Positions 2,416-57,886 of a stretch of DNA of 60,524 nucleotides are shown here, piece after piece; position 1 is the first letter of the stretch, and each line of letters starts with the position of its first letter. The notes under the pieces are model-generated. The model was given only the letters and a program-made list of their open reading frames with translations. It did no database searches and was not told the DNA's origin. Origin of the DNA: a virus; the IMG/VR virus record IMGVR_UViG_3300037511_000399; one strand, 5' to 3'. The position numbers and the translations under genes are program-made.

Positions 2416-3492
2416 ATGCCCCGGCGTATGCCCACAGAGCTGATGCGCTCGACTCTCGAGGTCGTGCGCGATGGATTGGCCGGCGACCCCGCGCACGAGT
2501 CCAAGGTGCGCGCGCTCGACAGGGTGATCGCGATGCTCGCGGACGATGGCCCGAGCGACAACCCCAGCGCCGTCCGCATGCGCCGCAAGCGCGCAAGGGA
2601 GAGAGAGCGGGGCGATAGCGGTGACGCCGAAGTGACAAAAGGTGACGTCACAAAGCCCGTCACTGTGACGCAAGGTGTGACGCCCCCAGTGACGCCGATT
2701 GTGACGTCACAAGTGCCTCGCGCGCGCGCGTTCTCAGATCAAGATCTCTCTCAAGATCTTGAGAATTCTGCAGAAAATCAGAAACGTAGTGAGAGATCTG
2801 GATCCGGATCTTCTGCTGTAACCGCGCGCGCGATCGCAGGACTGAGTGACGGTCACAGTGACGCGCCGCGTGACGTTCGTTCGGTTGCCCGTGAAACGCT
2901 CACCGTGCGCGGGCACCTCAAGCTCGAGGGCGCCAGGCTCTATCAGCGGCTGAGCGAGCAGGTCGCCGCCGCAACCGGTGCCGTCGGCTACGACGTCCAG
3001 CGCCACCTGCAGGACTGGGCTTGGATCGGCGAGCAGCCGGCCGAGCAGTGGACGCGCGTGCTGCAGTACATCGCGGCGGATCCGTGGTGCCGGTCGCTCG
3101 AGAACCGCGCGAAGGTCTCGCCGTCGCACATCCGTGGGCGCTGGCCGGTCTACTGCGAGCCGCCGAAGCCGGGCGCTGCACCGCCGCGCCCGGTGACGCG
3201 CGAGGAGCGTGCCGAGCTGTTCAAGCGCTTGCGTGCAGAGCTGCTCGCAGCGCGCGAGCGCAAGGCCGGTTCCGTCGGCTCAGCGCGCAGCGAAGCGGAA
3301 GCCGCGGCGTCTGCAGCCGAGCGTGCGATCGTCGAAGCGTTCGGCCCCGACGCACTCGACCGCATCGACGGTCGCGAGCCGAGCGCAGCGCCCGCGCCGA
3401 AGCCGCCGGTGCGCACGCAGCCGGCGAACGATCCCGAGGCCGACCTAGCGGCCTACCGCGCCGAGCAAGCGGCGCAGCGGAGCGCAGGATGA
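2416..3492 (+). CDS. replication-initiator-like protein carrying an internal ori-like DNA segment
   Basis: In frame of ORF 2185..3492, starting at ATG 2416 just after the upstream TAG. The linker region is encoded by an iteron-rich and A/T-rich stretch, analogous to lambda O/ori. The function is inferred from that architecture only. Confidence 0.45.
   Translation: MPRRMPTELMRSTLEVVRDGLAGDPAHESKVRALDRVIAMLADDGPSDNPSAVRMRRKRARERERGDSGDAEVTKGDVTKPVTVTQGVTPPVTPIVTSQVPRARAFSDQDLSQDLENSAENQKRSERSGSGSSAVTARAIAGLSDGHSDAPRDVRSVARETLTVRGHLKLEGARLYQRLSEQVAAATGAVGYDVQRHLQDWAWIGEQPAEQWTRVLQYIAADPWCRSLENRAKVSPSHIRGRWPVYCEPPKPGAAPPRPVTREERAELFKRLRAELLAARERKAGSVGSARSEAEAAASAAERAIVEAFGPDALDRIDGREPSAAPAPKPPVRTQPANDPEADLAAYRAEQAAQRSAG
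2621..2874. promoter_or_regulatory. candidate origin of replication: GTGAC iterons flanking an A/T-rich GATC cluster
   Basis: GTGAC at 2621, 2632, 2642, 2665, 2677, 2689, 2701, 2846, 2858, 2870. GTCAC at 2647, 2659, 2706, 2852. GTGACGTCAC palindromes at 2642-2651 and 2701-2710. The 2735-2815 segment is visibly A/T-rich, with six GATC sites and the 12-bp palindrome TCAAGATCTTGA at 2751-2762. Confidence 0.5.
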
Positions 3493-3833
3493 GCGACACG
3501 AAAGCCAAGCTGGCCGAGCTCGCCGCGCGTGCCGAGAGCGCAACCTCCGCAGTCGTGCGCCCGACCGATGCCGAGCTCGGGCAGGCGCGCGCGTGGGCCG
3601 AGCGCGTCGGGCATCGCTGGACCCAAAAGGCGAGCATCAGCCAAGAGGACGCCAAGACGGTCGCGCGCGTGCTGTCTTGGATGCTCGCCGAGCGCGGCGT
3701 GTTGCGTCGCGTCAGCGCCGAAGCCGTGCGCCGCTACGAGGGCGCGCCTGATCGCTTGGGCGAAGCGCTCGCGGCGCTCGACGTGTTCGATCAGCCCGGC
3801 GCGCAGCTGCCGCTGCTCGGAAAGGACCGGTGA
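3489..3833 (+). CDS. hypothetical protein (downstream partner of the initiator-like gene)
   Basis: In frame of ORF 3021..3833. ATG 3489 overlaps the upstream TGA. 114 aa: MSDTKAKLAELAARAES... Confidence 0.6.
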   Translation: MSDTKAKLAELAARAESATSAVVRPTDAELGQARAWAERVGHRWTQKASISQEDAKTVARVLSWMLAERGVLRRVSAEAVRRYEGAPDRLGEALAALDVFDQPGAQLPLLGKDR

Positions 3834-4498
3834 CCGTGAAGTCGCACGCCGAAGCGCTGGCGATCCTACAGGGACGCGACACGTGCCCGAAGCGCAAGCG
3901 CGTGCCGAAGCCGCCGGAGCCGGCGTCGTTGCATCCGCACGAGTGCGTGGTGATCGGCGTCGACGCTGGCACCGCATGCTCGGGCGTCAGCACATGGGTG
4001 CGCGGCGTACTCGTCGGCTACGGCGAGATCAAGAACCTGGACCCGGCTGCGATCGACGCCGCCATCGCATCGGCTGAGTTGCTCGGCAGCGTTGCCGGCA
4101 TCCCGCTCGTGATGGTTCATGAGCGGCCGCCACCGGCTCACGTGATCTACGAGGGCCGCGACTCGTCGGGTGTCGTTGGCGCGAACAAGGCCATCGAGTC
4201 GTGGCGTAATGCCTGGGTCCGCGCCGGCTACACGATGCGGCGCTTCATCGGCGTGCAGGTCAACCGCTGGCGCGCAAGGGTGCTCGGACGCGGCTGGGGC
4301 GGCGGAGTGGCGCGCGTTGTCGTGCGCGACCGCGAGCAACAGGTCGCGCGCGTGATAGCAGAGGCCGAGGGCTTGAGCGCGCCGATCGGTCCCGACGCCG
4401 CGCCAGCCATCTGTATCGGCTTCTGGGGAACGCGCGCGGGCGAGGTCGGCAAGGTGCTGGTGCCGACGGCACAGCGCCGGCGACGGAGGTCTGCATGA
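3830..4498 (+). CDS. RuvC-like Holliday junction resolvase (putative)
   Basis: ORF-track 222 aa. The N-terminal motif VVIGVDAGTACSG resembles the RuvC-family catalytic Asp motif, and an acidic residue in VMVHERPP follows. Confidence 0.5.
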   Translation: MTVKSHAEALAILQGRDTCPKRKRVPKPPEPASLHPHECVVIGVDAGTACSGVSTWVRGVLVGYGEIKNLDPAAIDAAIASAELLGSVAGIPLVMVHERPPPAHVIYEGRDSSGVVGANKAIESWRNAWVRAGYTMRRFIGVQVNRWRARVLGRGWGGGVARVVVRDREQQVARVIAEAEGLSAPIGPDAAPAICIGFWGTRAGEVGKVLVPTAQRRRRRSA

Positions 4499-5469
4499 AC
4501 GCGCTCGCGCCGGTCGAGAAGGTCAGCCAGGCCGAGGCGTTGCTCTCGCAAGCGGTCGCCGAGCTCGAGCACGCAACAACGCTCGGCGAGGTGCTCAACG
4601 CTCGCGACGTCGCGCAGGTCGTGCGCGAGTGCCTCGAGCTGCGCGACAAGGGCAGCGCCGCGCACGCGGCCGCATGGGAAACCGTGGTGCTGGCCAACGC
4701 GCGCGCCGGCGACTTCACGCGCCAGCTGCCGAAGGGCAAGCGCGGGCCGAAGACCTCGGAGGTGATTTCCCCCGACGACGGGGAAATCTGCGCGACGAAA
4801 ACCGAGACGCTCGCCGCGCTGAACATCACGAGCCAGGACGCGTCGCGGTTCGAGCGGCTGTCGGAGATTCCGCGCGACGAGCTGCGCGCGCGCATCGAGC
4901 TGGTGAAGCAGGACATCATCGCCGGCAAGCGACCGCGCGACGTCACCGCGGTCACTTCAGCTGTCGGGCACGACGGCGATCAGTTCAGCACGCCGGCGAA
5001 GTACGTCGATCCCGCGCGCAAGCTGATGGGCGGCATCGAGCTCGATCCGTTCACCAACCCCAGCGCGCAGCTCGTGGTCCGAGCCGACCGCTTCTACACG
5101 CGCGAGACCGACGGCTTTGCGCATTCGTGGGCGGCGCGTAGCGTGTGGTTTCAACCGCCGTACTCGCGCGGCGAGATCCAGAGGGCCACCGTGAAGCTGC
5201 GCGAGGAGCTGCCGCGCATCGCCGAGTGCGTCGGGCTCGTCAACAGCGACCCCAGCACGGACTGGTATCAGTCGCTGTTGAACGCGAGCGCGGGCCACTG
5301 TCAGCTGAACCACCGCATCGCGTTCGAGCTCGACGGCACGCCGGTCAAGGGCAACGCGCATCCGCAAGTGATCTTCTACTTCGGCCCGAAGCTGCCCGCC
5401 TTCGCACGCGCGTTCAGCGAGTTCGGTACGATCTGCGTGGTCTACAAGCAGGGGAAGGCTTCGCGATGA
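4495..5469 (+). CDS. phage Dam-like DNA N6-adenine methyltransferase (putative) with extra N-terminal domain
   Basis: ORF-track 324 aa. The C-terminal half has DQFSTPAKYV and FQPPYS, a (D/N)PPY-like motif IV, as in phage Dam-type enzymes. Confidence 0.55.
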   Translation: MNALAPVEKVSQAEALLSQAVAELEHATTLGEVLNARDVAQVVRECLELRDKGSAAHAAAWETVVLANARAGDFTRQLPKGKRGPKTSEVISPDDGEICATKTETLAALNITSQDASRFERLSEIPRDELRARIELVKQDIIAGKRPRDVTAVTSAVGHDGDQFSTPAKYVDPARKLMGGIELDPFTNPSAQLVVRADRFYTRETDGFAHSWAARSVWFQPPYSRGEIQRATVKLREELPRIAECVGLVNSDPSTDWYQSLLNASAGHCQLNHRIAFELDGTPVKGNAHPQVIFYFGPKLPAFARAFSEFGTICVVYKQGKASR

Positions 5470-5884: not shown

Positions 5885-6418
5885 ATGGGCAATCGCGTGT
5901 GGTTCGATACCGAGTTTCTCGAGGACGGGCGCACGATCGAGCTGATCAGCATCGGGCTCGTGCGCGCCGACGGCGCCGTGTACTACGCCGAGACGCCGAA
6001 CGCGCGCGAGCTCGCGAGCTCGACGCCGTGGTTGGCCGAGCATGTGCTGCCGCACTTGCGCGGCGCTCCGCACGACCCCAGCACCGAGGGTAGTTACGTC
6101 GTTCCATCGGAACGGCCGACGACGCGTGCGCGTGCCGACATCGCGCGCGACATCCTCGACTTTGTCGGGAAGTCGCCCGAGTTCTGGGCGTACTTCGCTG
6201 ACTACGACTGGGTGGCACTGTGCCAGCTGTACGGCCGCATGATCGACCTGCCCAAGGGCTGGCCGATGTACTGCCGCGACTTGAAGCAGCTCGCCGACGA
6301 GCGCGGCGCCCGGTTGCCGGCGTTCCGCGACGCAAGCCGGCCGCAGCACGACGCGCTCGCGGACGCGCTCGAGTGCCGAGATCGGCACCTGTGGTTACTC
6401 TGGGAGTCGCGTTCATGA
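5885..6418 (+). CDS. DEDD-type 3'-5' exonuclease (Rv2179c-like exoribonuclease fold, putative)
   Basis: ORF-track 177 aa. The N-terminal FDTEFLEDGRTIELISIGLV...DGAVYYAE matches the DnaQ-like ExoI motif, and HDALADA lies near the C-terminus. Confidence 0.65.
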   Translation: MGNRVWFDTEFLEDGRTIELISIGLVRADGAVYYAETPNARELASSTPWLAEHVLPHLRGAPHDPSTEGSYVVPSERPTTRARADIARDILDFVGKSPEFWAYFADYDWVALCQLYGRMIDLPKGWPMYCRDLKQLADERGARLPAFRDASRPQHDALADALECRDRHLWLLWESRS

Positions 6419-7467
6419 ACCGCCCAACGCTCAAGCAACGTCGTCGCAGCTATCGCATGCATGCAGGCCCGCGCGTGTTCGCGCCGGTCGGCGTCCCCGA
6501 GTCGCTGCTGATGGTGCAGCTCGCGGCCGACCGATTCGGCGGCAATGCGAACGCGGCGAGCAATGCGCTGACTCCGCTCGGCGAGGTCGGCCATGGTCGG
6601 CACGACACGGCGTGCAAGTGCTGCGGCATGCGGGTGTGTGAGAACCGCGTGCGGTCAGTGCAGGCGGCGCTCGCGCAGCCGGCGTTGACGTTCGTGCCGC
6701 TCGCGCCGGGCTGGACCCATCACCGCGGCGGCTCGTTCACGCATCTCAGCAACGCGGTCGTGTGGCCGGTCGACGATGGATCGTGGAACTACTGCGGCCC
6801 CTGCTCGCACGAAGAGCTCGAGCACGCGCGCGCGCGTGACGGGCACGCGCCAACGCGCGACGAAGCCATGGCTCTCGCGCTGGGGTGGGCCAAGGACCCT
6901 CTGTATCCCGGCGGATGGTCGTGCGCTGTCGACAACCTGATCAGACAGGTGGCTGTCCCAAAGAGAGGTGGCGATTGGGATGCATATAGGATCGTTGACG
7001 GCGCAACATCTGCGGCGCGCAGAGGGACGCTGCCGCACGCAATCGCGTGGTGCCGCGGCGACGACAAGGCAGACGCAGCGAAGGCTCAGCCGTCAGCTGA
7101 ACCGAAACCGTCAGCTGAACCGAGCGCGTTGGCCGACGGGACGCTGCCCGATGGCTGGGAGACCTACTGCGGCGACTATCGGACCAAGTGGTTCGACGGG
7201 CCGCTCATCCGCTGGCAGGCCGGCAGGTACCACGTGTGGCGAGACCCGAGGCCGAGTCAGCGAACGGCGATGGTCGACTCGCTCGACGTTGCAATGCTGG
7301 TCGCGCTCGGGTGCGACGTCGTCGTAACCTCGCGTGAGTTTGAGGCGAGCTGGACAGAGAAGCGCGGCGAACACGAGAAGCGCGTCACGGCTCGAGCGAA
7401 CGGACCGAAGGCAGTGCGACTGCTCATCGAGGAGCTGACCGCCAAGCGGTTCGCGAGCGCGGTGTAG
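6415..7467 (+). CDS. hypothetical protein (350 aa)
   Basis: In frame of ORF 6220..7467. ATG 6415 overlaps the upstream TGA. Contains a short in-frame tandem repeat, SAEPKPSAEP. Confidence 0.6.
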   Translation: MNRPTLKQRRRSYRMHAGPRVFAPVGVPESLLMVQLAADRFGGNANAASNALTPLGEVGHGRHDTACKCCGMRVCENRVRSVQAALAQPALTFVPLAPGWTHHRGGSFTHLSNAVVWPVDDGSWNYCGPCSHEELEHARARDGHAPTRDEAMALALGWAKDPLYPGGWSCAVDNLIRQVAVPKRGGDWDAYRIVDGATSAARRGTLPHAIAWCRGDDKADAAKAQPSAEPKPSAEPSALADGTLPDGWETYCGDYRTKWFDGPLIRWQAGRYHVWRDPRPSQRTAMVDSLDVAMLVALGCDVVVTSREFEASWTEKRGEHEKRVTARANGPKAVRLLIEELTAKRFASAV

Positions 7468-7480
7468 AGCGAGGCACAGC

Positions 7481-7828
7481 TTGGCCGACAACGACGAGAG
7501 CAAAGCGCCCGGCTACATCAGGAGCGGGCCCGACACCTGCGACGATGCGCTCGCGCTCGCGAAGGCCAACGCGCGCGGTGCTATGGAAACGATAGCGCGC
7601 ATCATGGCGGCAAAGAAGCCACCGCGGAACGCGTACGCGCAGATCGCAGCGGCTTCGCGCGTGCTTGAGCTGTCAGGCCTCGGGTCGGGCGACGGCATCA
7701 GCTACGACCGGCTGGTAAAGGTGCTGCGCGAGGAGCTGGAACCCGAGCAGGTCAGGCGCATCATGCGGCGGTTCAATGGGGGGCAGGTCATCAGGGCGTC
7801 GAAAAACGCAATGGTTCCGCGGCAATAG
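7481..7828 (+). CDS. hypothetical protein
   Basis: ORF-track 115 aa, TTG start, diverse composition. Confidence 0.5.
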   Translation: MADNDESKAPGYIRSGPDTCDDALALAKANARGAMETIARIMAAKKPPRNAYAQIAAASRVLELSGLGSGDGISYDRLVKVLREELEPEQVRRIMRRFNGGQVIRASKNAMVPRQ

Positions 7829-7868
7829 AAAATAGTCGCGCTCGCAGGTCGTTTTTGAACGGAAATAG

Positions 7869-7935
7869 CTTGCAACGCAGGTCAATCGGGCGCACAGTCT
7901 CCTTTGTCAGCACGGCGCTGACGCAAAAGGGAGAC
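7869..7935 (+). promoter_or_regulatory. promoter-like element copy A (TTGCAA-N17-CACAGT) plus 5'-UTR hairpin covering the SD
   Basis: CTTGCAACGCAGG at 7869-7881. Hairpin 7897-7935 (GTCTCCTTTGTCAGC-ACGGC-GCTGACGCAAAAGGGAGAC) pairs the GGGAGA Shine-Dalgarno. ATG at 7943. Confidence 0.5.
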
Positions 7936-7942
7936 AGAAGCC

Positions 7943-8803
7943 ATGATGAACGCCAGCCTCGCAACCCGGTTCAGCAGCAACGCCCGTCGCAACCAGGTTT
8001 TCAGCAGCACGGGTCTCGCGCTCAGCGAAAACGACCTGATGCGCATCGCCCCGAGCGTGTTCGCGGAGAGCGCGCACGAGTCGCGCAGCGCGCGCTACGC
8101 GCACATCCCGACCGTCGAGGTGCTGCGCGGCCTGGCAGCCGAGGGCTTCCGGCCGTTCTTCGCGGTGCAGGGTAAGTGCCGGGTCGAGGGCAAAGAAAAC
8201 TTCACCAAGCACATGCTCCGCTTCCGGCACGAGTCGGCCATCGCGCGCAGCGGCGCCGACGTCAACGAGGTCATTCTCATCAACAGCCACGACGGCACGA
8301 GCAGCTATCAGATGCTCGCCGGATGCTTTCGCTTCGTGTGCGCCAACGGCCTGATCGCGGGCTCGATCGTCGAGGACATCCGAATCAAGCACAGTGGCCG
8401 CGTCGTGGTCGAGGTCGTCGAGGGCGCGCACCGCATCCTGAGCGGCTTCGCGGAGGTCGACGCGAGCAAAGACGCGTTCAAGTCGCTGCAGCTCACCGCA
8501 GGCGAGCAACAGGCATTCGCGCGCGCTGCGCTCGCGGTCCGCTATCCCGAGGCGCAGGCAGGCGAAACGCCCATCACCGCCGAGCAGGTGATCGCCCCCC
8601 GTCGGTACGAGGACCGCGACGGCTCGCTGTGGGCAACGTTCAACTCCGCGCAAGAGAACCTGACCCAGGGCGGGCTGCGCACGACCGACCGTCGCCGGCG
8701 CACGCACACCCGCGCGGTCAACGGAATCGACGGGAACGTGGCCATCAACCGCGGCCTGTGGGTGCTCGCCGAGGAGATGCGCAAGCTCCGCAACGCGGCC
8801 TAG
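7943..8803 (+). CDS. DUF932-like protein (family common on ICEs, plasmids and prophages)
   Basis: ORF-track 286 aa. Motifs YAHIPT..VL..L and INSHDGTSSY are recalled from the DUF932/pfam06067-type family. Confidence 0.6.
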   Translation: MMNASLATRFSSNARRNQVFSSTGLALSENDLMRIAPSVFAESAHESRSARYAHIPTVEVLRGLAAEGFRPFFAVQGKCRVEGKENFTKHMLRFRHESAIARSGADVNEVILINSHDGTSSYQMLAGCFRFVCANGLIAGSIVEDIRIKHSGRVVVEVVEGAHRILSGFAEVDASKDAFKSLQLTAGEQQAFARAALAVRYPEAQAGETPITAEQVIAPRRYEDRDGSLWATFNSAQENLTQGGLRTTDRRRRTHTRAVNGIDGNVAINRGLWVLAEEMRKLRNAA

Positions 8804-8883
8804 CTCGAAGCTACCGCCGTGGCTCGGGGGCACGGTCCCCGGGCCTAGGCGGGCGCTTGGGGCGCTCGAGGAGACAGGAACCC

Positions 8884-9189
8884 ATGGCGAAGCTGATTAC
8901 GCTCGAGATCAACAGGCGACACGACTCCCGGGGCTTCTGGCTGCGTTGCGCGCTGTTCACGTTTGCTCTGCATTGGTGGCCGCGTTGGCGCGCGATGCCC
9001 GGGCTCTGCATCACGCTGTGGGCAGGGCGCGGAGCGGGCTACGTCAGCACGAAGTGGCGCATCGCCCTGCCGACGCTCTTTCTCGCGGTCAACGCCAAGG
9101 GCGGTCGGCGTTGGCTCTACGCGCCGGCGCGGTTTCGCGCGGGCCTGACCTGGAACGCAAATGAAGTGCCCTACCACTTCGGGAGCTGA
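8884..9189 (+). CDS. hypothetical Trp/Arg-rich, partly hydrophobic protein
   Basis: In frame of ORF 8176..9189. ATG 8884, preceded by GAGGAG at 8868-8873. Confidence 0.5.
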   Translation: MAKLITLEINRRHDSRGFWLRCALFTFALHWWPRWRAMPGLCITLWAGRGAGYVSTKWRIALPTLFLAVNAKGGRRWLYAPARFRAGLTWNANEVPYHFGS

Positions 9190-9201
9190 GCGCAGCATTC
9201 C

Positions 9202-9231
9202 CTTGCACGCAGGTCAATCGCGCGCGAGAGT
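9202..9231 (+). promoter_or_regulatory. promoter-like element copy B (TTGCAC-N17-GAGAGT)
   Basis: CTTGCACGCAGGTCAATCGCGCGC aligns with copies A and C. The ATG at 9240 lies 8 nt after the -10-like hexamer, so the leader is very short or absent. Confidence 0.45.
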
Positions 9232-9239
9232 CGGCAACC

Positions 9240-9548
9240 ATGCGCAAGCCACGCCAGACAGCCGCGGCACTCGCTCGCGAGATGCACGCTGCAGACCCGA
9301 CCCTGACCACCTCGCAGATCGCGGCGGCGCTCTCCGAACGGCTCAAGCGCAAGATCGTGCATCAGCAGGTACAGGACGCATTGCGCGCGGAGTCGAGCAA
9401 GCCGGGCCCCCGAGCTCGCTACGAGCGTCCGGCGCGCTTGATGGCCACCGTCAGCGCGGAGACGCTGGAACGCGTGCAGGCCGAGGCGGACGCCGCAGGG
9501 GTGTCACTGTCGGAATGGGTCGAGAGACGCCTCGGCACGCCGCTGTAG
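9240..9548 (+). CDS. ribbon-helix-helix (CopG-like) DNA-binding protein (putative)
   Basis: ORF-track 102 aa. The C-terminal ATVSAETLERVQAEADAAGVSLSEWVERRL fits the RHH beta-alpha-alpha pattern. Confidence 0.5.
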   Translation: MRKPRQTAAALAREMHAADPTLTTSQIAAALSERLKRKIVHQQVQDALRAESSKPGPRARYERPARLMATVSAETLERVQAEADAAGVSLSEWVERRLGTPL

Positions 9549-9673
9549 CGCGTCAGCCAGGGTGACCCCGCAGGGGGCTGCCGGACCGCTCTGCGCCGAC
9601 ACTCGGTCCTTGGGGGCCAGGGGGCCGATCTGACCGGTCGGAGCGCTCGCATGTCGATTGTGCGCGCAGACCA

Positions 9674-9738
9674 CTTGCAACGCAGGGGAATAGTGCGCTA
9701 CGTTCTCTTTCGTCGGGCACGGCGCCCGGCAGGAGAGC
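9674..9738 (+). promoter_or_regulatory. promoter-like element copy C plus 5'-UTR hairpin covering the SD
   Basis: CTTGCAACGCAGG at 9674-9686. Hairpin 9705-9737 (CTCTTTCGTCGGGC-ACGGC-GCCCGGCAGGAGAG) has the same ACGGC loop as copy A, and the AGGAGAG SD sits in the 3' arm. ATG at 9747. Confidence 0.5.
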
Positions 9739-9746
9739 GAAACCGA

Positions 9747-10022
9747 ATGGCGACCTTCAACCTTCCCGGCGTTGCGGTGTTTCAGGACGATGAAATTGGC
9801 CGCGGCGTCAAGCACGTGATCTCGGTTGTCGAGGTCTATCCCGAGGGGCATCCCTTCACGCGCAAGGGCACGCCGTGCGTCACCCGCGTGTACGTGGGTG
9901 AGGACCCCGCGCGTGGCATTGAGCAGGCGCGCGCGCACGCGCAGCACGTGCTCACCGAGCTGCGCGCCGATCGCGCGGTGGTCTGCCACTCACACGATTA
10001 CGTGGTCGAGGTGGCGTCATGA
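9747..10022 (+). CDS. hypothetical protein
   Basis: In frame of ORF 9651..10022. ATG 9747 after AGGAGAG. MATFNLPGVAVFQDDEIGRG... Confidence 0.6.
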   Translation: MATFNLPGVAVFQDDEIGRGVKHVISVVEVYPEGHPFTRKGTPCVTRVYVGEDPARGIEQARAHAQHVLTELRADRAVVCHSHDYVVEVAS

Positions 10023-10222
10023 ACAAAACCGCGCACCGCGTGCTCGCTCGCGACGTCGACCGGTTCAATCAGGCGCTCGCCCGCGTCAGGCGCTTTGCTG
10101 AAGCCCGCGGCTGGTGGGTCGCCTACGCGGTGGAGCGCGAGGCTACCGAGATCGTCGCCTACCACCCAAACGACCTGAGCAGCGCGCCGTACCGCTTGCG
10201 CGTCGTTGTCGTGCACCCCTGA
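10019..10222 (+). CDS. hypothetical protein
   Basis: ORF-track 67 aa, ATGA-coupled start. Confidence 0.55.
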   Translation: MNKTAHRVLARDVDRFNQALARVRRFAEARGWWVAYAVEREATEIVAYHPNDLSSAPYRLRVVVVHP

Positions 10223-10272: not shown

Positions 10273-10707
10273 GTGCGCTTCGCGGTCGCGTTTTTGTTGC
10301 TGCTGTCGGCCTGCTCGGTCGACGTGTACACGCCGGAGCGCCCGACAGCCGAGCAGGTCGACGCGGTCGATGCCGCGCTGTGGGTGTGGCAGGGCGAGCT
10401 CGGCGCCGTGCCTGCGTGCTGGGCTGAGCGCGATCGCCTGCGATGGCGTGTGCTCGACCGCGACGGCGTCGACCTTGTGTGCGGCGGAGTCGACACCTAC
10501 GACGGCTGCCACGTGCCGATCGATGGCGCACCCGAGATCGTCGTACTCGACACGCCAAGCGAGAGCTGGCGCCGCACGATCGAGGCGCACGAGCTGGCCC
10601 ACTGGCTACAGCACTGCAGCGGTCGCGTGCCCGAGGGCGACCCCACGCACAGCGATGCCGCGGTATGGCCCCGGCTGGTGAACGAAACGCTAGCCGCGAT
10701 GCGGTAG
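10273..10707 (+). CDS. predicted lipoprotein with HExxH zinc-metalloprotease-type motif
   Basis: ORF-track 144 aa. The N-terminus MRFAVAFLLLLSAC carries a lipobox (L-S-A-C), and HELAH appears near residue 115. Confidence 0.6.
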   Translation: MRFAVAFLLLLSACSVDVYTPERPTAEQVDAVDAALWVWQGELGAVPACWAERDRLRWRVLDRDGVDLVCGGVDTYDGCHVPIDGAPEIVVLDTPSESWRRTIEAHELAHWLQHCSGRVPEGDPTHSDAAVWPRLVNETLAAMR

Positions 10708-17358: not shown

Positions 17359-17861
17359 GCTACGCCGACCGTCAGCCCGGCGGGCCGCGCCCGTACCGCA
17401 CGATTCACGAGCTGATCGAGGCAATCGCCGCGCTCGAGAAGCTCGAGGCCGAGAGCGTCGAGAACGCGAGCGGCATCGTCGTCGCACCGCTCACGCCCGA
17501 CGAAGAGCAGCGGCTACGCGAGCATGCCGACCTGATCGCGATGTGCGCGGCGCGCTGCGACGCGATGCTGGGCCGACGCGCGTTCGCGCGCGAGAAGGCG
17601 AACCCGACGCTGCGCTACGTGAACATGTTCGTATGGCGCGCCGAGCAGGTGCTGTTTCATCGCTGGCTCGTCGAGCGGCTCAAGCTGACCCAGCGCGACG
17701 TGAACCGCATCGCCATCGCGCAGGGCTACCAGCAGCACCAATACGACCGGGCGAAGCACCATCAGCGCCCCTCGACACGTGGCGTTGACACTGATGCGTT
17801 CGCCGCGAGCGTGCTCAGCGGCGAGACCAAGCTGACGCCGCACCGTGAGGCGACCGCGTGA
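17355..17861 (+). CDS. hypothetical protein
   Basis: In frame of ORF 17295..17861, ATGA-coupled ATG 17355. Confidence 0.6.
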   Translation: MSYADRQPGGPRPYRTIHELIEAIAALEKLEAESVENASGIVVAPLTPDEEQRLREHADLIAMCAARCDAMLGRRAFAREKANPTLRYVNMFVWRAEQVLFHRWLVERLKLTQRDVNRIAIAQGYQQHQYDRAKHHQRPSTRGVDTDAFAASVLSGETKLTPHREATA

Positions 17862-20206
17862 GCTTCGGTCCTTACATCCCCGAGCTCGGCGGCCAGGCTC
17901 CGCCCGGCATCACCGTCGAGCACGTGCTCGAGGCAGAGCAGCAGCAGCGACAGGTGCAGCCGACGCCGCTGTACTGGGCCGCGCGCGATGCGGTCGAAGT
18001 GATCGGCGTCCTCAAAGAGAAGAAAAAGGCCTATTTCGAGTTCGCGCGCACGCGCGGGTTCATCGATGCCTGGCTCGCGAGCTACTGCCAGCGCCACGGC
18101 CAAGCAGTCGACGATGTGCAGAGCTGGGAGACGCTGAGCGTTGGCTTCGCCGGCGACGACGGCGAGCTGCTCAACTTTCGCGTCAACGAGGTCGCGAGCT
18201 ACGCCGACCAGCTCGTGACGATGGCCATCGGCAACCGGCCCGCGTTCGAGACGTACGCAACCAACGACAACTACGACTCGCTCGCGCAAGCAGAGCCCTC
18301 GGACCGAATCGTCGAGTACGTCTACGCCGACCGCTACGGCGAGCGCAAAGAGCGTCGCGTCATCGATCACGCTGCGTGGTACGCGCAGGGCTACACGTGG
18401 ATGCGCTGGGACCCGACCGCCGGCGAGCAGCTGCCGGCGAAGGAAGTCACGGTCATGCGCACGCTGCCCGATGGCTCGCAGGCGCCCGAGCTCGACCCGA
18501 AGACCGGTCGGCCGGTGACCGAGATGGTGCCGGGCCCGAAAACTGGGCACATCATTCTCAAGGCGCTGTACCCGTGGGATCAGTATTGCGAGCCGCGCAC
18601 CGAGGATCCCGACGATCATCTCTGGCGCACCGCAATCGAACGCCGAAGCCGTCACGAGCTCGCCGGACTGTTCCCCGAGCTCGCAGCGCAGCTCCTCGCT
18701 GTCGACGGTAACGACCCATACAGCATCGAGTCGCTGTTCAGCACGGACCCCGTCAGCTCCAACGCGCAGCGCGACGAGATCCCGGTCGAGCACTTCTATC
18801 ACCTGCCGAGTCCGGCGCTCGACGCTGCGCAGGGCGGCAAGTTCAAGACCGGCCGATACCTCTGCTTTGCTGGCGACATCAAGCTGCTCGACATCCCGTT
18901 GGCCTACCCAACGATTCCGCTGATCGAGTTCAAGCCGTGGCCCTGGGATGGCTGCGCGTTCGGGTACACGCCGATCTACGACATGCTGTCGATCAACACC
19001 GTGATCGATCAGCTGATGTCGGATGGCGCATCGAACCTGACCAACTGGGGTCGGCTCTCGATGGTGATGGACGTCGGGACCACCATCACGGCCGAGGAGC
19101 TCGCCCGCGGTGAGCGGATCTTCACCAAGCCCACGGACACCGATCACCCCAAGTACATCGATCCACCGGCGATCCCGGAGTCCGCGAAGTGGTTCCTCGA
19201 GCAGTGCATCAAGCGGCTGCAGTCTCGCAGCGGCCTGAACGCGGTTACGCGCGGCGACCCCGACAAAAACATCACGTCGGGCACCATGGCCGCGCTCTTC
19301 CACAGCATCGCGATCGAGGCGAACAGCGGTTTGCAGGCAGCTGTCGATCAGCACCGCGAAGCCGTGGCCAACATGATCCTCGTGGTGCTGCAGCGCTTCG
19401 CCGAGCACCCCATGATCTTCGGCATCGCCGGCGGCGATGACCGCGATTACGTCGCGTCGTTCACGAAGTCGGATCTCGAGGGCGTGCGCGGCGTGCGCGT
19501 CAAGACTGCGAACCCCATGAGCCGCACCCAAGCGGGCCGCATGGAAGTCGCGCAGCTGATGCTCAAGATCCCCGGTGCGATCGAGGATCCGGCGCAGCTC
19601 AACGAGACGCTAAACAGCGGAACGCCGACGCCGCTCTACAAGAACGCGCGCCTGCGCCGGCTCCGCATCAAGTACGAAAACGAGCTGCTGCGCGGCGATC
19701 CAAAGAAGGGCCCGCCGCAGGTTCAGCAGAAGGTGGATCCCCCGCCGCCGGAGCTGCCGAATGGCATGCCGTCGGGGCCTGCGCCGATTCCATACCGTTG
19801 GGTGCCTGCGGTGCCGGTCCTGATGACCGACATCCATCCTTTGCACATCGAGAGTCACACCGCAGAGCTCAGCACCAAGCGCGCGCTCGAAGATCCCGCG
19901 TACGCCGACGCGGTGATGGCGCACATCGAGCACCACATGCACATGTGGAAGTCGACGGCGCCTGACTATCTGCAGGCCTTCCACTGCCCGCCGTATCCCG
20001 GCTCGATGGCAGCGCCTGCGCCCGGCGCGCCTGGCTTGCCGCCCGGTGGTGGTGGTCCAGGCGGACCGCCGCACCCCGCGCCCGGTGGTGGCGGTGGCGG
20101 CGGCGCGCACATGCCCGAAGCGCTGCAGCACAAGCAAGGTCCCGACGTGGGCACGCCGATTCCCAAGCCCGCGCAGTCACCGATCGGAACGCCGCAAGCC
20201 GCGTAG
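17858..20206 (+). CDS. portal (head-to-tail connector) protein
   Basis: ORF-track 782 aa, GTGA-coupled. Size and position fit a portal (after the terminase, before the scaffold-like and capsid genes). The C-terminal tail is Gly/Pro-rich. Confidence 0.7.
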   Translation: MSFGPYIPELGGQAPPGITVEHVLEAEQQQRQVQPTPLYWAARDAVEVIGVLKEKKKAYFEFARTRGFIDAWLASYCQRHGQAVDDVQSWETLSVGFAGDDGELLNFRVNEVASYADQLVTMAIGNRPAFETYATNDNYDSLAQAEPSDRIVEYVYADRYGERKERRVIDHAAWYAQGYTWMRWDPTAGEQLPAKEVTVMRTLPDGSQAPELDPKTGRPVTEMVPGPKTGHIILKALYPWDQYCEPRTEDPDDHLWRTAIERRSRHELAGLFPELAAQLLAVDGNDPYSIESLFSTDPVSSNAQRDEIPVEHFYHLPSPALDAAQGGKFKTGRYLCFAGDIKLLDIPLAYPTIPLIEFKPWPWDGCAFGYTPIYDMLSINTVIDQLMSDGASNLTNWGRLSMVMDVGTTITAEELARGERIFTKPTDTDHPKYIDPPAIPESAKWFLEQCIKRLQSRSGLNAVTRGDPDKNITSGTMAALFHSIAIEANSGLQAAVDQHREAVANMILVVLQRFAEHPMIFGIAGGDDRDYVASFTKSDLEGVRGVRVKTANPMSRTQAGRMEVAQLMLKIPGAIEDPAQLNETLNSGTPTPLYKNARLRRLRIKYENELLRGDPKKGPPQVQQKVDPPPPELPNGMPSGPAPIPYRWVPAVPVLMTDIHPLHIESHTAELSTKRALEDPAYADAVMAHIEHHMHMWKSTAPDYLQAFHCPPYPGSMAAPAPGAPGLPPGGGGPGGPPHPAPGGGGGGGAHMPEALQHKQGPDVGTPIPKPAQSPIGTPQAA

Positions 20207-22232: not shown

Positions 22233-23522
22233 ATGACCAGCGCGATCGCTGCGTACCTCACCAAGCGGTACGGCAAGTTCATGAATCCGATGCCGAGCAT
22301 CGACACGCTCGCAAAGGATTTCCCGTTTGTTCCACGCCAGCAGCGTGAAGGTGCATCGTACGACTTCCCGATCCGCCTCGGCTTGCCCGGCGGCGTGACG
22401 TTCGACGACACCAACACTGCCTTCCCGACCAAGTCGCCGATCGCCGCGGTGTTCAAGTCCGCGAGCGTCACCGGCTCGTCGATCCTCGTGCAGGACGACG
22501 TCCCGTACAACGACGTCTTCGCGACGATGAACGGCATCTCTGACGGTGGCGGTCAGGGCGGCGCGTACTTCGACAAGTGGGACGAAGCGACCGAAGGCGT
22601 GATGCTGACCGCGGAGGTCTACCGCGAGATCCAGCTGCTCGCCGGCCCCGGTCCGACCTCGACCGCCGCGGCATCGATCGGCACCGTCTCTGCGTCGGTC
22701 AGCGGCGCCAACTTGGCTGCGCCCCAGGTGGTCAACATCACCAAGTCCACGTGGCGCCCCGGCTTGTTCCAGCGGCTGATCGGCCACCTGTTCGACGTGT
22801 ACCAGTCGGATGGCACCACGCTTCGCGCGTCGGGAGTCACGCTGCAGGCCGTCGTCGACAGCACCAACCGTCTGCAGCTGTTCAAGACGGGCTCCGCGGC
22901 GACGGTCGCCGCGAACGACATCATCCTGCCGGCCAGCTCGATCGACGTCAGCTGCTACGGCATCGAGGCGATCGCCGCGAACACCGGCTCGCTGTTCGGC
23001 ATCGACGCTGGCGTCTACCCGCAGTGGAAGGTGTCGCAGTTCGCCGTGGGCGGCGCGCTGACCCGCGCCAAGATCCTCGGCGCGCTCGCAACGCTGAAGG
23101 CCAAGGGCGTCCGCGATGGCGGCACGCTCTACGTCTCGGCGCCGTGCATGGCTGACCTGATCGAGGAAGCAAACACGTTGGTGCGCTTCACGCCGCAGGC
23201 GGCAGACAAGCCCGACGTTCGCGTGCAGGGCACCTCGCGTGTCGAGTACGCGACGCAGATCGGCTTGGTGGTGGTCAAGACGCACGACTACTTCCAGCAG
23301 GGCCTGGCGTTCTTCAACCCCAACAAGAACGGCGGCATCCGCGTCGGTCAGACCGACAACACGTTCACCAACGGCAAGAACGAGATGTTCTTGCAGGAGC
23401 TCGAGAACAACGCGGGCTCCCGCATCCGGTGCTTCTCGCACCAGGCGCCGCTGCTGCCGCTGCCTCACCAGTGCATGCGGTTCACCGGCATCGTCTCGAC
23501 GTACGACTCTGCTCCGGCCTGA
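22233..23522 (+). CDS. major capsid protein
   Basis: ORF-track 429 aa. Very strong G/C third-position bias, a 209-nt leader upstream, a strong hairpin immediately downstream, and synteny. Confidence 0.7.
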   Translation: MTSAIAAYLTKRYGKFMNPMPSIDTLAKDFPFVPRQQREGASYDFPIRLGLPGGVTFDDTNTAFPTKSPIAAVFKSASVTGSSILVQDDVPYNDVFATMNGISDGGGQGGAYFDKWDEATEGVMLTAEVYREIQLLAGPGPTSTAAASIGTVSASVSGANLAAPQVVNITKSTWRPGLFQRLIGHLFDVYQSDGTTLRASGVTLQAVVDSTNRLQLFKTGSAATVAANDIILPASSIDVSCYGIEAIAANTGSLFGIDAGVYPQWKVSQFAVGGALTRAKILGALATLKAKGVRDGGTLYVSAPCMADLIEEANTLVRFTPQAADKPDVRVQGTSRVEYATQIGLVVVKTHDYFQQGLAFFNPNKNGGIRVGQTDNTFTNGKNEMFLQELENNAGSRIRCFSHQAPLLPLPHQCMRFTGIVSTYDSAPA

Positions 23523-34944: not shown

Positions 34945-34950
34945 GCTCGG

Positions 34951-35023
34951 CTCCGGGGGCAGGATTCGAACCTGCGATCTCTCGAGTAACAGTCGAGCGC
35001 AGTACCAGCTGTGCCACCCCGGA
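34951..35023 (-). tRNA. tRNA-Asn (anticodon GUU)
   Basis: The reverse complement folds by hand as follows. Acceptor TCCGGGG/CCCCGGA. Anticodon arm CTCGA-CTGTTAC-TCGAG. T-arm GCAGG-TTCGAAT-CCTGC. Discriminator G. 73 nt. The D-stem has one C-C mismatch. Confidence 0.85.
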
Positions 35024-35173: not shown

Positions 35174-35267
35174 CGTAACGCGCGCATCGGTTCGGCGCCA
35201 GCGACTCGAACGCTGATTGGCGGGACCAAGGCCCGCAGTCCTGCCGTTGGACGAGCGCCGAAAGTGC

Positions 35268-45899: not shown

Positions 45900-46510
45900 C
45901 GCTTTTTTCCTGTCTCGCCGGCCGGCACGACCACGCGGAACGGCTGCCGCGCTGCCGCGTCGATCAGCTGTTCGGTGAGCTGCGCGCGGTCGCGCGATTG
46001 GTGCAGCACCAGCTGTATGAGCACCTCGACGAACGGCTCGGTGCCGGTCTCGTACTTGATCAGGAACGCGTGCACGTTCGGATCGCGCCATGCGGCGTCA
46101 TAGAGCGCGAGCATCAACGAGCGGGGCACGTCCTTCGGCGCTCGGCGCTCGAGTCGATCGCGGTTCTTGAATTCGCGATACTGGTCAACCACGCGCTGCG
46201 CGAACGGGCGCACGGCATCGACGATCCGTTGCTCCCGCACCGCTTCGATCTGCGCGCCGTCGAGCAGGCCAGCGCACGCGAGGTCGACGATGTGCTCAAG
46301 CTCGGCCGTCGCAGCAGTCAGCGGCGACTGCGCTTCCCGGATCTTCGCGCGCATCTCGTCGAACACCCGCGGCGGCAGGGTGTTCCAGACGTCGCGCGCG
46401 ACCTTGATGGTGCACAGCTGCGTCACCAGGTCGTAGTCGCCGACCACTTCGCGCTCGAGCATGCGCCCGACCTCGGCCGCGAGCCGTTCGGCAGCTTCGT
46501 TGGGCTTCAT
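45896..46510 (-). CDS. hypothetical protein (204 aa)
   Basis: ORF-track. Its ATG overlaps the integrase stop (ATGA). Confidence 0.65.
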   Translation of the reverse strand: MKPNEAAERLAAEVGRMLEREVVGDYDLVTQLCTIKVARDVWNTLPPRVFDEMRAKIREAQSPLTAATAELEHIVDLACAGLLDGAQIEAVREQRIVDAVRPFAQRVVDQYREFKNRDRLERRAPKDVPRSLMLALYDAAWRDPNVHAFLIKYETGTEPFVEVLIQLVLHQSRDRAQLTEQLIDAAARQPFRVVVPAGETGKKR

Positions 46511-56788: not shown

Positions 56789-56794
56789 GAGGCG

Positions 56795-56844
56795 ACACTA
56801 TGCACCTCTGCAGATGCAGTCAAGCAGTCTGCAGTGATGCAGAC
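56795..56844 (-). promoter_or_regulatory. leftward early promoter (TTGACT-N17-TAGTGT) with two CTGCA/TGCAG operator-like sites
   Basis: On the minus strand the -35 is at 56823-56818 and the -10 at 56800-56795. CTCTGCAGATGCAG (56806-56819) lies in the spacer. The 18-bp palindrome GTCTGCA-GTGA-TGCAGAC (56827-56844) sits just upstream. Confidence 0.5.
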
Positions 56845-57153
56845 GAAAATAAATCGGGAAACCTTGCAGGACTACAGATCGCGCAGATCCGTCGACTGCA
56901 CGTCTGTGCCGACCTTGTGTGACCTGTCGGTCGCGCGCGCATGACCGCGGCGCGGGCGGCGTCGGGGGAAGCCATAGCCAGCGCTGGCGGGTTGTAAGCC
57001 TTTGCCCGCTAGGTGTATTGCAGCTGCGGAGTGGGCGTTCCGACGTCAGAGTGCAGCGCGGCAGCTGATGAGTGGTTGCGCGCACGTGCGAGTGCCACGC
57101 CAGGGCTAGCGGGCCTTGCCCGAGCGTGCGGGCTCAACGTGCGCGCGACATCA

Positions 57154-57447
57154 GTGCGCACCGTGAAGCCGTTCCGCGATCGCAACACGCTTTGGTACAG
57201 CGAGGCGTGCTCCGCGGAATGGGTGCGCGCGTTCTTCGTTCGCGAGATCGCAACGCAGGCGCTCGCGGCCGTAGGCGAGCCGCAGACGTTCGCCGCGGTG
57301 GAAGCGCTGAGCTCGTCGATCAGGCGCTATGCGCGCGGCGTCGCGACTTTGGAGCGGCCGGCGGCGGTGAGGACGCGGGCGCGGTCAGCTTCGGCAATTC
57401 TGCCAATCGTGCAGCAGCAGCTGCCTGCGCCTTCCGATCCTCTCTAA
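57154..57447 (+). CDS. possible ORF convergent with, and overlapping, the repressor 3' end
   Basis: In frame of ORF 57013..57447, GTG 57154. The first ~60 codons have high G/C third positions (VRTVKPFRDRNTLWYSEACSAEWVRAFFVREI...). It overlaps 57320-57447 of the minus-strand gene. Confidence 0.3.
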   Translation: MRTVKPFRDRNTLWYSEACSAEWVRAFFVREIATQALAAVGEPQTFAAVEALSSSIRRYARGVATLERPAAVRTRARSASAILPIVQQQLPAPSDPL

Positions 57448-57765
57448 TCGCGATCAGCATCGACAGCCGGTCGAGCTTCGTCGCGGTCGTTTCCATCACG
57501 CGATCGAGCAACTCGCGCTCGTCGGCGGTCTCTGGATCGGGTGCGTCGTCGCGGTCGCTGCCGGTGAGCTCGTCGAACGAGTGACCGAGCCGCTTGGCGA
57601 TCTTCACGAGCGTGTCAGCGGCCGGCAGCGTGCGCCCCTTCTCGAGTCGCCATAGCGTGGTGGGGTCGATGCCGCACTCGCGGGCGAGCTTGCGCTGCGT
57701 GAGCTTCGGTTTTTGTTCGGCGCGCCAGAGCCGGACGCGCGCACCAATGACTGACGTGTCATCCA
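57320..57765 (-). CDS. XRE/cI-type HTH repressor
   Basis: In frame of ORF 57320..57814, ATG 57765. IGARVRLWRAEQKPKLTQRKLARECGIDPTTLWRLEKGRTLP is a classic HTH_XRE. Divergent from a Cro-like gene. Confidence 0.7.
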
Positions 57766-57842
57766 TAGTCTTACCCCGCCGTACTGCTTTGAAACCAGTA
57801 CCAGCGCTCTGCATGTCTGCCTAGGCCCCTAATCGGCACCGT

Positions 57843-57883
57843 TTGACTTGCTCTGCATCGATGCAGTATGCAACAGTGCAGAG
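57843..57883 (+). promoter_or_regulatory. rightward early promoter (TTGACT-N17/18-GTATGCA) with operator palindrome
   Basis: TTGACT at 57843-57848. Perfect 14-bp palindrome CTGCATCGATGCAG at 57853-57866 in the spacer. An inverted CTCTGCA / TGCAGAG pair at 57851-57857 and 57877-57883. Confidence 0.5.
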
Positions 57884-57886
57884 CAA

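Follow-up and report, generated by a model that had tools for sequence, protein, structure and literature searches.

What is the function of a promoter-like element that recurs three times among the accessory genes of a phage, twice with a hairpin that pairs with the Shine-Dalgarno (SD) sequence of the following gene? The element lies in the IMG/VR virus record IMGVR_UViG_3300037511_000399, a 60.5-kb metagenomic contig (JGI 3300037510) of 68.6% G+C; we refer to this whole stretch of 60,524 nucleotides (nt) as the window, and to the three copies, in order, as copies A, B and C. Gene order agrees with the original prediction, made from the letters of the sequence, that the elements precede a DUF932-like gene and a downstream accessory block. 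That prediction also placed an SD-occluding hairpin in the 5′ untranslated region (5′-UTR) of the promoter's own transcript. Our analysis indicates that the regulatory cassette is real, and we lean, with modest confidence, towards a full model of regulated cassettes that carry a hairpin at the transcription start (+1) and in which the SD is sequestered only on transcripts that read through from upstream.

Pattern searches for CTTGCA(A)CGCAGGnnAATnnnGCGC found exactly three copies in the window, at 7869, 9202 and 9674, and the form TTGCA(A)CGCAGG..AAT was found solely at 7869-7893, 9202-9225 and 9674-9698. Each copy is on the plus strand, in a gap separating plus-strand open reading frames (ORFs), and the proposed recurrence in intergenic gaps was thus borne out both by reading the sequence and by these searches. 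The GCACGGCGC 9-mer by itself is common, with 11 copies in the window. Copies A and B have 18 of 19 nt in common (ACGCAGGTCAATCGSGCGC; blastn-short E=0.005 within the window), and copies A and C are 75% identical across 56 nt when an upstream box is included. This 20-nt box, GCGCTCGCAKGTCGWTTKTG, present at 7838 and 9643, goes beyond what had been described earlier. It reads GCGCTCGCAGGTCGTTTTTG in front of copy A (7838-7857, plus strand), where it holds a second CGCAGGTC repeat and is followed by an A/T-rich UP-like tract, and GCGCTCGCATGTCGATTGTG in front of copy C (9643-9662, plus strand); in both boxes the second repeat, CGCAGGTC or CGCATGTC, lies 33 bp 5′ of the repeat in the spacer.

The promoter-like core of copy A (7869-7898, plus strand) consists of a -35 hexamer TTGCAA at 7870-7875, a 17-nt spacer with ACGCAGGTCAATCGGGCG, a putative operator, and a -10 hexamer CACAGT at 7893-7898, with a predicted start at G7906. 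Core B (9202-9231, plus strand) has TTGCAC at 9203-9208, the 17-nt spacer GCAGGTCAATCGCGCGC and GAGAGT at 9226-9231, and core C (9674-9704, plus strand) has TTGCAA at 9675-9680, a spacer with CGCAGGGGAATAGTGCGC and TACGTT at 9699-9704, with a predicted start at G9712. A spacer of 17 nt had been assigned to each copy; this holds for A and B, whereas the best -10 of copy C, TACGTT, needs a spacer of 18 nt. The A+T content upstream of the -35 is 61% in copy A and 39% in copy C, compared with 31% in the genome. None of the three window copies passed a standard sigma-70 consensus scan. Other classes of site were considered and rejected. A sigma-54 promoter has GG at -24 and GC at -12 in fixed spacing (TGGCAC-N5-TTGC); the required spacing was present only in copy A (GG 11 nt before TTGC), copy B having AG and copy C having GC. 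Reading of the sequence gave no match to LexA or CIRCE-like boxes, and a mimic of a CRISPR repeat was dismissed, there being no Rfam match to a CRISPR direct repeat and no likeness to familiar repeats.

Copies A and C are each followed by a two-tier hairpin on the plus strand. Hairpin A (7897-7935) has an outer stem, 7897-7905/7927-7935, in which the anti-SD sequence GUCUCCUUU pairs with AAGGGAGAC, an inner stem, 7906-7911/7917-7922, and the loop ACGGC at 7912-7916; its predicted folding energy is -21.4 kcal/mol (z=-3.6; 0 of 200 shuffles did as well). In hairpin C (9701-9739; -25.4 kcal/mol, z=-2.2, a value that 9 of 200 shuffles equalled or bettered) the outer stem, 9701-9709/9731-9739, pairs CGUUCUCUU with AGGAGAGCG, the inner stem is 9712-9718/9724-9730, and the loop ACGGC is at 9719-9723. 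The folds confirmed that hairpins follow these two copies, that of copy C being slightly longer than the 9705-9737 first proposed, and both agreed with the claim of an identical ACGGC loop on different stems with the SD in the 3′ arm (GGGAGAC in A, AGGAGAG in C). The pentaloop is closed by C-G and G-C pairs in both, giving an apex GC-ACGGC-GC. A hairpin scan of the window for an ACGGC loop on a stem of at least 5 bp returned hairpins A and C only; judging from how often such apexes occur by chance across about 1.25 Mb of GC-rich loci taken without selection, about 0.3 would be expected per window. For copy B, folding found no hairpin. The predicted probability that the SD of copy A is paired is 0.75. 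The motif had not been recognized when it was first described, and a search with 4227 Rfam models likewise matched no known RNA family: at the gathering threshold only one tRNA was reported in the window, and at E values up to 10 the region 7700-9900 yielded chance snoRNA and miRNA matches only. A literal sequence search of the literature gave no match. Hairpins recognized by CsrA/RsmA carry GGA in the loop (A(N)GGA) and a second GGA at the SD. This identity was rejected, because the window loops are ACGGC and do not contain GGA, ACGGA occurring only in two of the comparison contigs, L188 and L190 (L numbers denote comparison contigs, and winA and winC the window copies A and C).

The position of these hairpins relative to the promoter determines which transcripts would contain them. 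We scanned 14 cassettes for the best sigma-70-like match while ignoring the position of the hairpin. The inner stem, whose first base is always a G, begins 5-7 nt after the -10 in 12 of the 14, and the distance from the hairpin to the start codon is 16-22 nt, again in 12 of 14; the sequence upstream of the -35 is A/T-rich. L201 is an exception, with a gap of 3 nt to an extended stem and of 7 nt to GTCAGC. In the window, the outer stems have 5′ arms (7897-7905 and 9701-9709) that share nucleotides with the -10 hexamer and with the 7 nt leading up to the predicted start. By this geometry, transcription should start at the inner-stem G, and because this G is the predicted start, the anti-SD arm would be absent from the RNA made by the adjacent promoter. 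RNAs begun at G7906 or G9712 are predicted to fold as the inner hairpin only, leaving the SD unpaired. The full SD-sequestering hairpin would form only on transcripts arriving from upstream, since the anti-SD arm precedes the predicted start. This finding departs from the original prediction: the local transcripts are predicted to keep the inner hairpin and a free SD. A terminator scan found no terminator on the plus strand, and none before copy A.

Evidence from other genomes came from contigs fetched through DUF932 proteins of 66-77% identity in a large protein collection, and the comparative set comprises about 10 independent cassettes. L179 is syntenic with the window (Dam, exonuclease, DUF932); its DUF932 protein is 72% identical in amino acids (aa), and over 1378 nt the DNA identity is 77.6%. 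No other 40 nt of this alignment are conserved as well as the block 7878-7917, which comprises the spacer, the -10 and the 5′ half of the hairpin and is 100% identical in L179. The upstream box of copy A is also kept, and the lone change in the outer stem turns a U.G pair into U-A. At the equivalent site 5′ of DUF932, L180/181, L185/186, L187, L188, L190, L189 and L191 have much better sigma-70 promoters of the form TTGACN-16/17-TAnnnT, some with an extended -10 (for example TTGACG-17-TATGTT, TTGACT-16-TGgTATGCT and TTGACA-17-GAGGGT). In these relatives, pyrimidines form a tract behind the promoter, after which come a hairpin beginning GTC(A/G)G and an SD arm rich in purines; these sequences are unlike those of the window, and the folds have z-scores of -1.3 to -5.1. 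The designation of the window elements as promoter-like is therefore upheld by their positional homology to good sigma-70 promoters in related phages, but not by the consensus scan. As judged from this conservation of sequence, the relatives show the element to be functional. The SD lies in the 3′ arm of the hairpin in winA, winC, L179, L185, L187, L189 and L209. The claim of a conserved ACGGC loop does not hold in general: in the unbiased DUF932 set the loops vary, with ACGGC in the window and L179, ACGGA in L188 and L190, and GCGAU, GUUGU, GAAUG and longer ones elsewhere.

The cassette is absent from L184, L183, L001 and the DUF932 genes (about 55% identity) of integrative and conjugative element (ICE) type; the ICE-type relatives have a terminator-like hairpin and a pyrimidine-rich leader instead. 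Scans of genome and metagenome contigs with the DUF932 protein found relatives of at most 66% identity, mostly of ICE type. Nine contigs with this same DUF932 protein represent two distinct places, both identical to the window, and because of that identity they provide no variation. No close relative of the window was found in the public phage collection or IMG/VR: nucleotide searches of INPHARED with 7400-10100 (distant mode) and 14000-38000 (near mode) gave no match, and scans of IMG/VR for relatives of the 91-aa and 102-aa ORFs of the cassette region gave none.

To assess the stems, we used homology-based and loop-anchored alignments with explicit structures. In the homology-based alignment of the inner stem (7 sequences), 98% of cells were paired and 2 pairs were compensatory; 13 of 500 shuffles did as well, and partners slid out of register paired in 24-51%. 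In the loop-anchored alignment of 11 sequences, 92% of cells were paired compared with 64% in shuffles (0 of 500 as good), and slid partners paired in 29-45%. Some of the latter signal arises because 6-bp and 7-bp versions of one stem are aligned out of register, and the loop-anchored alignment consequently overstates independent covariation. G.U pairs in winC, L180 and L190 keep the pairing solely in plus-strand RNA, which argues against a palindrome of duplex DNA. Covarying stems and conservation in relatives, both anticipated by the original prediction, are thus seen in compensatory and G.U changes. Given a plain MAFFT alignment, in which indels throw the stems out of line, RNAalifold failed to find them.

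The hairpin also occurs outside the DUF932 context. An exact IMG/VR scan for GTCAGCACGGCGCTGAC returned 20 loci, at least 12 of them inside long ORFs (for example coding VSTALT), and three independent cases are intergenic and promoter-adjacent: L209, L193 and L201/L208. L209 (TTGCAA-17-CATAGT-ctctctt-hairpin-...GGGAGAC-ATG) shows homology to copy A over the stretch that runs from -10 through SD, and a different gene, of 62 aa, follows. L193 reads CTTGAC-17-CTACAA-gggagag-hairpin, and L201/L208 read TTGACA...CCTAAT-aat-GGGGTCAGC...GCTGACCCC. The C-type hairpin GTCGGGCACGGCGCCCGRC had a single IMG/VR match, in L224, in the 5′-UTR behind TTGACA-17-TATGAT; the 131-aa protein encoded after it (L224 12479-12874) has an extremely acidic N-terminus (MSVEDMDESWDEEEDEYEDEWEEE...), a composition such as would be expected for a DNA-mimic anti-restriction protein. 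Because the flanks are unrelated, the hairpin is a conserved island in L193, L201 and L224, and sequence-specific recognition therefore stays viable; these recurrences cannot test conservation of the loop, because they were retrieved with loop-containing queries. None of the 12 IMG/VR matches to CGCAGGTCAATCGNGCGC is in a promoter-like context, and they were taken as chance for this reason. The 16-mer of the L188 type had 4 matches in IMG/VR, all in unrelated or coding contexts, the full promoter pattern had none, and tblastx of L193, L201, L208 and L209 against the window gave GC-rich noise only.

Taken together, these observations are consistent with the following mechanism. Each element would be a promoter of the sigma-70 type, used by the host RNA polymerase, in a compact regulatory cassette: an A/T-rich tract, the -35 TTGCAA, a 17-18-nt spacer, a weak -10 (nAnnGT/TAnnTT) and 7 nt, continued in copies A and C by a G that opens a GC-rich stem-loop, with the start codon 16-20 nt later. 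Local transcripts would open with the inner hairpin, 5′-GUCAGC-ACGGC-GCUGAC in A and GUCGGGC-ACGGC-GCCCGGC in C, with zero unpaired 5′ nt. Stem-loops at the 5′ terminus stabilize bacterial mRNAs, as in the ompA leader. The window element resembles such leaders in having a stem-loop at the predicted +1 and no unpaired 5′ nt; it differs in that theirs is a single-gene arrangement whose sequence is not conserved across genomes, whereas the exact 17-19-nt hairpin of the window recurs in unrelated phages. RppH and RNase E require at least 2 unpaired 5′ nt, and a 5′-terminal stem-loop blocks RppH (PMC8833179). The terminal hairpin may thus shield local transcripts from RppH and from 5′-end-dependent RNase E, while their free SD would allow translation. 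The SD has its complement in a tract of pyrimidines (CUCCUUU, CUCUUU) that separates the -10 from the start and would be present in read-through transcripts only; in these the full two-tier hairpin would form and block ribosome binding. The DUF932 gene and the 91-aa gene behind copy C would then owe most of their expression to regulated promoters of their own and be insulated from transcription of the upstream operon.

The regulation itself would rest on an operator and a DNA-binding protein. The putative operator consists of the CTTGCAACGCAGGTCAAT block of the -35 and spacer and the second CGCAGGTC repeat 33 bp upstream, and would be phage-specific; the conserved -35/spacer block and the upstream repeat are found specifically in the window and L179. 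In L188 and L190, a perfect palindrome, TTACTTGACTCAAGTAA, covers the -35 at 2-3 promoters; in the form TTACTTGA(C/T)TCAAGTAA it occurs at 3922-3938 and 5512-5525 in L188 and at 4921-4937, 6612-6627 and 10806-10818 in L190. This palindrome is a predicted phage-specific operator, the counterpart of the CTTGCAACGCAGG block of the window. In L185 a palindrome lies upstream of the promoter. A phage-specific DNA-binding regulator fits these data, because each relative has its own operator-like motif. One such protein, with CGCAGGTCAAT DNA as its target, might control all three units, and the candidate is the product of the 102-aa ORF behind copy B (9240-9548, plus strand), which has a ribbon-helix-helix-like segment, LMATVSAETLERVQAEADAAGVSLSEWVERRL, at its C-terminus. 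We propose this 102-aa protein as regulator of the three promoters with low confidence. The ORF has one homologue only, P0121 (91%), which shares its N-terminus, and a PDB sequence search found no relative. Its ATG at 9240 has no SD, and because the predicted start of copy B lies 0-4 nt before this ATG, the copy B mRNA would be leaderless or nearly so; the protein would autoregulate from this mRNA. Control by the phage immunity repressor was rejected, since its operators, near 57850 and 56800, are of the type CTGCA-N-TGCAG, unlike the cassette motif.

Several observations weigh against this mechanism or parts of it. With 4/6 and 3/6 matches, the window hexamers are weak, and the standard consensus scan does not accept them; the promoters may need an activator or be almost silent. 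The starts at G7906 and G9712 are predictions, and in L224 an identical hairpin lies 24 nt after the -10 and not at +1. Pairing of the SD is not exceptional in a genome of 68.6% G+C, where 76 gene starts were ranked and copy A came about 10th. L180 has its SD outside the stem, and in L188 and L190 the SD adjoins the stem or follows closely on its 3′ side; the insulation step is consequently not universal. The covariation counts are inflated by relatedness as well as by register shifts. An exact 17-mer that includes the loop and recurs in unrelated phages exceeds the needs of a purely structural stabilizer. As for the regulator, copy B has a single clear repeat only, the NikA-like Pfam match of the 102-aa ORF (E=0.008) is below the cutoff, and its single-sequence AlphaFold2 model is weak (predicted local distance difference test score 71; helices 73-85 and 90-98).

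Some of these points bear on other explanations. If the element were instead a cis-regulatory 5′-UTR RNA, a protein or small RNA bound to the ACGGC loop would open or close the SD stem and so control translation of the DUF932 gene and the accessory block. Such an RNA would be in keeping with the identical GC-ACGGC-GC apex on two different window stems, with GGC-ACGGA-GCC in L188 and L190, with the exact hairpins that stand as islands in the unrelated promoter-proximal leaders of L193, L201/L208, L209 and L224, and with the SD in the 3′ arm in the cassettes named above. However, the loops differ in the unbiased DUF932 set (GCGAU, GUUGU, GAAUG and long ones), 12 of 14 cassettes have the 5′ arm of the SD stem upstream of the predicted start, the extra ACGGC cases are biased by the loop-containing queries that retrieved them, the loop lacks the GGA needed for CsrA/RsmA and has no Rfam match, and neither a complementary loop nor a candidate binder was found; we consider this explanation rather unlikely. 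Equally tentative is a proposal that starts from the island itself, namely that GUC(A/G)G(G)C-ACGGC-GC(C)YGRC is a new, horizontally spread phage leader-RNA motif recognized loop-specifically by a host or phage factor, with possible roles in 5′-end protection, in recruitment of a translation or anti-decay factor, or in modification of RNA polymerase. It would explain the exact 17-19-nt island in winA, winC, L179, L193, L201/L208, L209 and L224 amid differing surroundings. The same recurrence of the whole 17-mer, centre included, in unrelated phages could also be read at the DNA level, with GTCAGC-N5-GCTGAC as an inverted repeat at +1 to +17 where a dimeric repressor blocks the promoter, the RNA fold being incidental. 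Repressor operators typically lie over the start site, as this repeat does, and palindromic half-sites would also appear to covary. This reading is quite improbable in our judgment, because T:G positions in winC, L180 and L190 keep G.U pairing in RNA and break the symmetry of the DNA, the loops are 5-11 nt long on bulged stems of 6-8 bp, the flanks pair with the SD in a second stem, and no shared repressor gene was seen among the contigs.

Two further explanations concern the cassettes as units of DNA and as barriers to transcription. The cassettes may be mobile recombination modules that shuffle, duplicate and excise accessory genes, a role for which the promoter-early stem-loop (PeSL) cassettes of T4-type phages provide a precedent and which is compatible with regulation. 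Copies A and C are direct repeats (56 nt, 75%, plus homologous hairpins) around a 1.8-kb block of three small genes; the same cassette from -10 to SD stands before a different gene in L209, and the hairpin before unrelated small genes in L193, L201/L208 and L224; and L191 and L001 have their own families of repeated intergenic hairpin cassettes, with five copies each. Yet the mosaic breakpoints between the window and L179 are at gene borders and not visibly at cassettes, there are three copies only, an identity of 75% is low for homologous recombination, and no circles or deletion variants were seen, the nine DUF932 contigs representing two places that are both identical to the window. Recombination modules are thus a possibility that we doubt. 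That the hairpins are intrinsic terminators or attenuators of incoming upstream transcription would be in line with GC-rich stem-loops in intergenic gaps and with the termination shown for PeSL stem-loops, but this is very improbable: Rho-independent termination was rejected because there is no U-tract (GCAAAAGGG follows A and AGGAGAG follows C) and the terminator scan of the plus strand was empty, and the 3′ arm serves the next gene as its SD.

The cassette mechanism that we favor has parallels in characterized phages. In the T4 genes e (lysozyme), soc, 49 and I-TevI, as described in PMC3014915 (McPheeters et al. 1986, as cited there), the promoter lies in the 5′ arm of a hairpin that sequesters the ribosome-binding site. 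The likeness extends to sequestration of the SD in upstream-derived transcripts (in the window, from predicted folds with the SD paired), to promoter DNA that specifies the helix's 5′ strand, so that the promoter's own transcripts lack that strand and are translated, and to conservation of the layout in relatives. With its predicted starts, the window would fit the T4 geometry, the -10 overlapping the 5′ arm and the inner stem lying 5-7 nt after the -10 (12 of 14). The T4 promoters differ in being late gp55 promoters (TATAAATA) of a lytic myovirus, whereas those of the window are of sigma-70 type (TTGCAA...CACAGT) with a phage-specific operator in a temperate phage; the window also keeps an inner stem-loop at the 5′ end of the short transcript and repeats the cassette within the genome. 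PeSLs are regulatory cassettes of T4-type phages (PMC2839356, PMC4122927) that likewise combine a repeated intergenic A/T-rich tract, a sigma-70-like promoter, a stem-loop overlapping or following the -10, and the SD and start of a small gene, and that lie in variable regions with genes of unknown function, the same cassette standing before different genes. They occupy hyperplastic regions of T4-type myoviruses, and the window cassettes an accessory region of small unknown ORFs. However, there are about 50 strong consensus PeSL copies with stem-loops shown to be terminators, compared with 3 weak copies and no U-tract in the window, where the stem-loop pairs with the SD, the conserved spacer is operator-like and copy B has no stem-loop; phage type and GC content differ as well.

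The start-associated sequences (SAS) and extended SAS (ESAS) of Cluster K mycobacteriophages are a conserved SD-flanking sequence of several genes and an inverted repeat with a variable spacer upstream of it (PMC3203893). They are phage-specific and in one orientation, like the window element, and their function is unknown; unlike it, they are not linked to promoters and number 10-20 per genome of actinobacteriophages, whereas the window has two hairpins, both fixed to a promoter. Two comparison contigs have elements of SAS/ESAS-like appearance. L191 has 5′-UTR hairpins at 5060-5100, 5940-5965, 6410-6435, 8515-8540 and 9450-9495 with the palindromic centre CGTTGCAACCG on different stems and an SD box, GAAAGGACCTCG, 12-16 nt past each of the five; the centre contains TTGCAAC, which is also in the -35 block of the window. 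L001, the closest IMG/VR relative (DUF932 66% identical), has five intergenic elements (2979-3035, 3515-3560, 3895-3950, 4850-4895 and 6066-6110) composed of GTTGC, a hairpin (TGCCC...GGGCA), TAGC and a conserved GGAGATAG SD context. The lambda nut site consists of boxA and a boxB hairpin bound by N, with the GNRA-like pentaloop GAAAA. The window resembles it in a promoter-proximal pyrimidine box (CUCUUU), a short hairpin with a conserved pentaloop and two copies per phage. A nut site was rejected, as the window loop is ACGGC, the boxA-like CUCUUU precedes the predicted start and terminators were not identified downstream; no N-like protein was found among the ORFs searched against families, a search that was not exhaustive. 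Because of the different promoter class, the few copies and the lack of terminator features, the window element is not a member of the T4, PeSL or SAS/ESAS systems; it would work like the T4 promoter-in-hairpin and looks like a PeSL.

The gene served by copy A (7943-8803, plus strand) encodes the 286-aa DUF932 protein (PF06067, E=7e-45; phrog_12094). Just past its stop codon, a long GC-rich stem-loop (8803-8863, plus strand) has an 11-bp core at 8821-8845, a loop ACG and no U-tract; the fold of 8800-8890 has an energy of -53.8 kcal/mol (z=-3.75), and the stem-loop is kept in L179, L180, L184, L185 and L187, with compensatory change in 6 of 19 pairs. By its sequence it is probably a 3′ stabilizer or an atypical terminator of the DUF932 unit. 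With this conserved 3′ stem-loop as well, DUF932 looks like a self-contained, moron-like unit of promoter, gene and 3′ hairpin. In phage-treated Variovorax communities, a DUF932 gene on an integrated plasmid repeatedly gained non-synonymous and start-codon mutations, which suggests that DUF932 proteins interact with phage infection (bioRxiv 10.1101/2025.06.20.660599). The next ORF (101 aa, 8884-9189, plus strand) has no family match and a DUF932-like SD context, GGAGACAGGAACCCATG; its initiation region at 8870-8886 is a near-repeat of that of DUF932, GGGAGACAGAAGCCATG at 7929-7945, and an SD context of the GGAGAYA type is common to the relatives. These shared contexts hint at a start-associated sequence. 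Copy C serves a 91-aa ORF (9747-10022, plus strand), the first of the downstream accessory block, behind which follow a 67-aa ORF, a 144-aa HExxH lipoprotein-like ORF and others. The 144-aa ORF (10273-10707) has a lipoprotein-type signal (LLLLSAC) and the HExxH motif HELAH and no family match; it may encode a secreted metallopeptidase-like moron.

The cassette region as a whole is a plus-strand series of small accessory genes: a Dam methylase, an Rv2179c-like exonuclease, 350-aa and 115-aa ORFs, DUF932, and the 101-, 102-, 91-, 67- and 144-aa ORFs. The window phage is temperate and carries an integrase (46507-48087, minus strand); it also encodes a portal protein (17858-20206), a major head protein (22233-23522), a Sak4-like recombinase and a CI/Cro-like switch (57320-58216). 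In this immunity region, a CI-like XRE repressor (57320-57814, minus strand) and a Cro-like XRE protein (57848-58216, plus strand) lie beside a promoter TTGACT-17-TATGCA; CTGCA-N2-4-TGCAG operators are repeated at the switch (57845-57890) and about 1 kb off (56800-56850), beside a 208-aa gene, and the roughly 500 bp of 56790-57320 hold no convincing gene. Two tRNA genes are on the minus strand, Asn-GTT (34949-35023) and Gln-TTG (35189-35261), the Rfam gathering threshold having given the first only, and L180 has an eight-tRNA array (7006-7775) about 2 kb downstream of its DUF932 cassette.

If the favored mechanism is correct, temperate phages of GC-rich Proteobacteria would use portable cassettes of promoter, operator, +1 hairpin and SD for their accessory genes, and DUF932 and small ORFans, possibly anti-defence or lysogenic-conversion genes, would thereby obtain their own expression, insulated from read-through. 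A logic documented so far for lytic T4-type phages would be extended in this way. The hairpin is in addition a candidate RNA motif, absent from Rfam, with about a dozen examples, and the cassettes would mark independently regulated morons and aid the annotation of gene starts, such as that of the probable leaderless regulator gene behind copy B.

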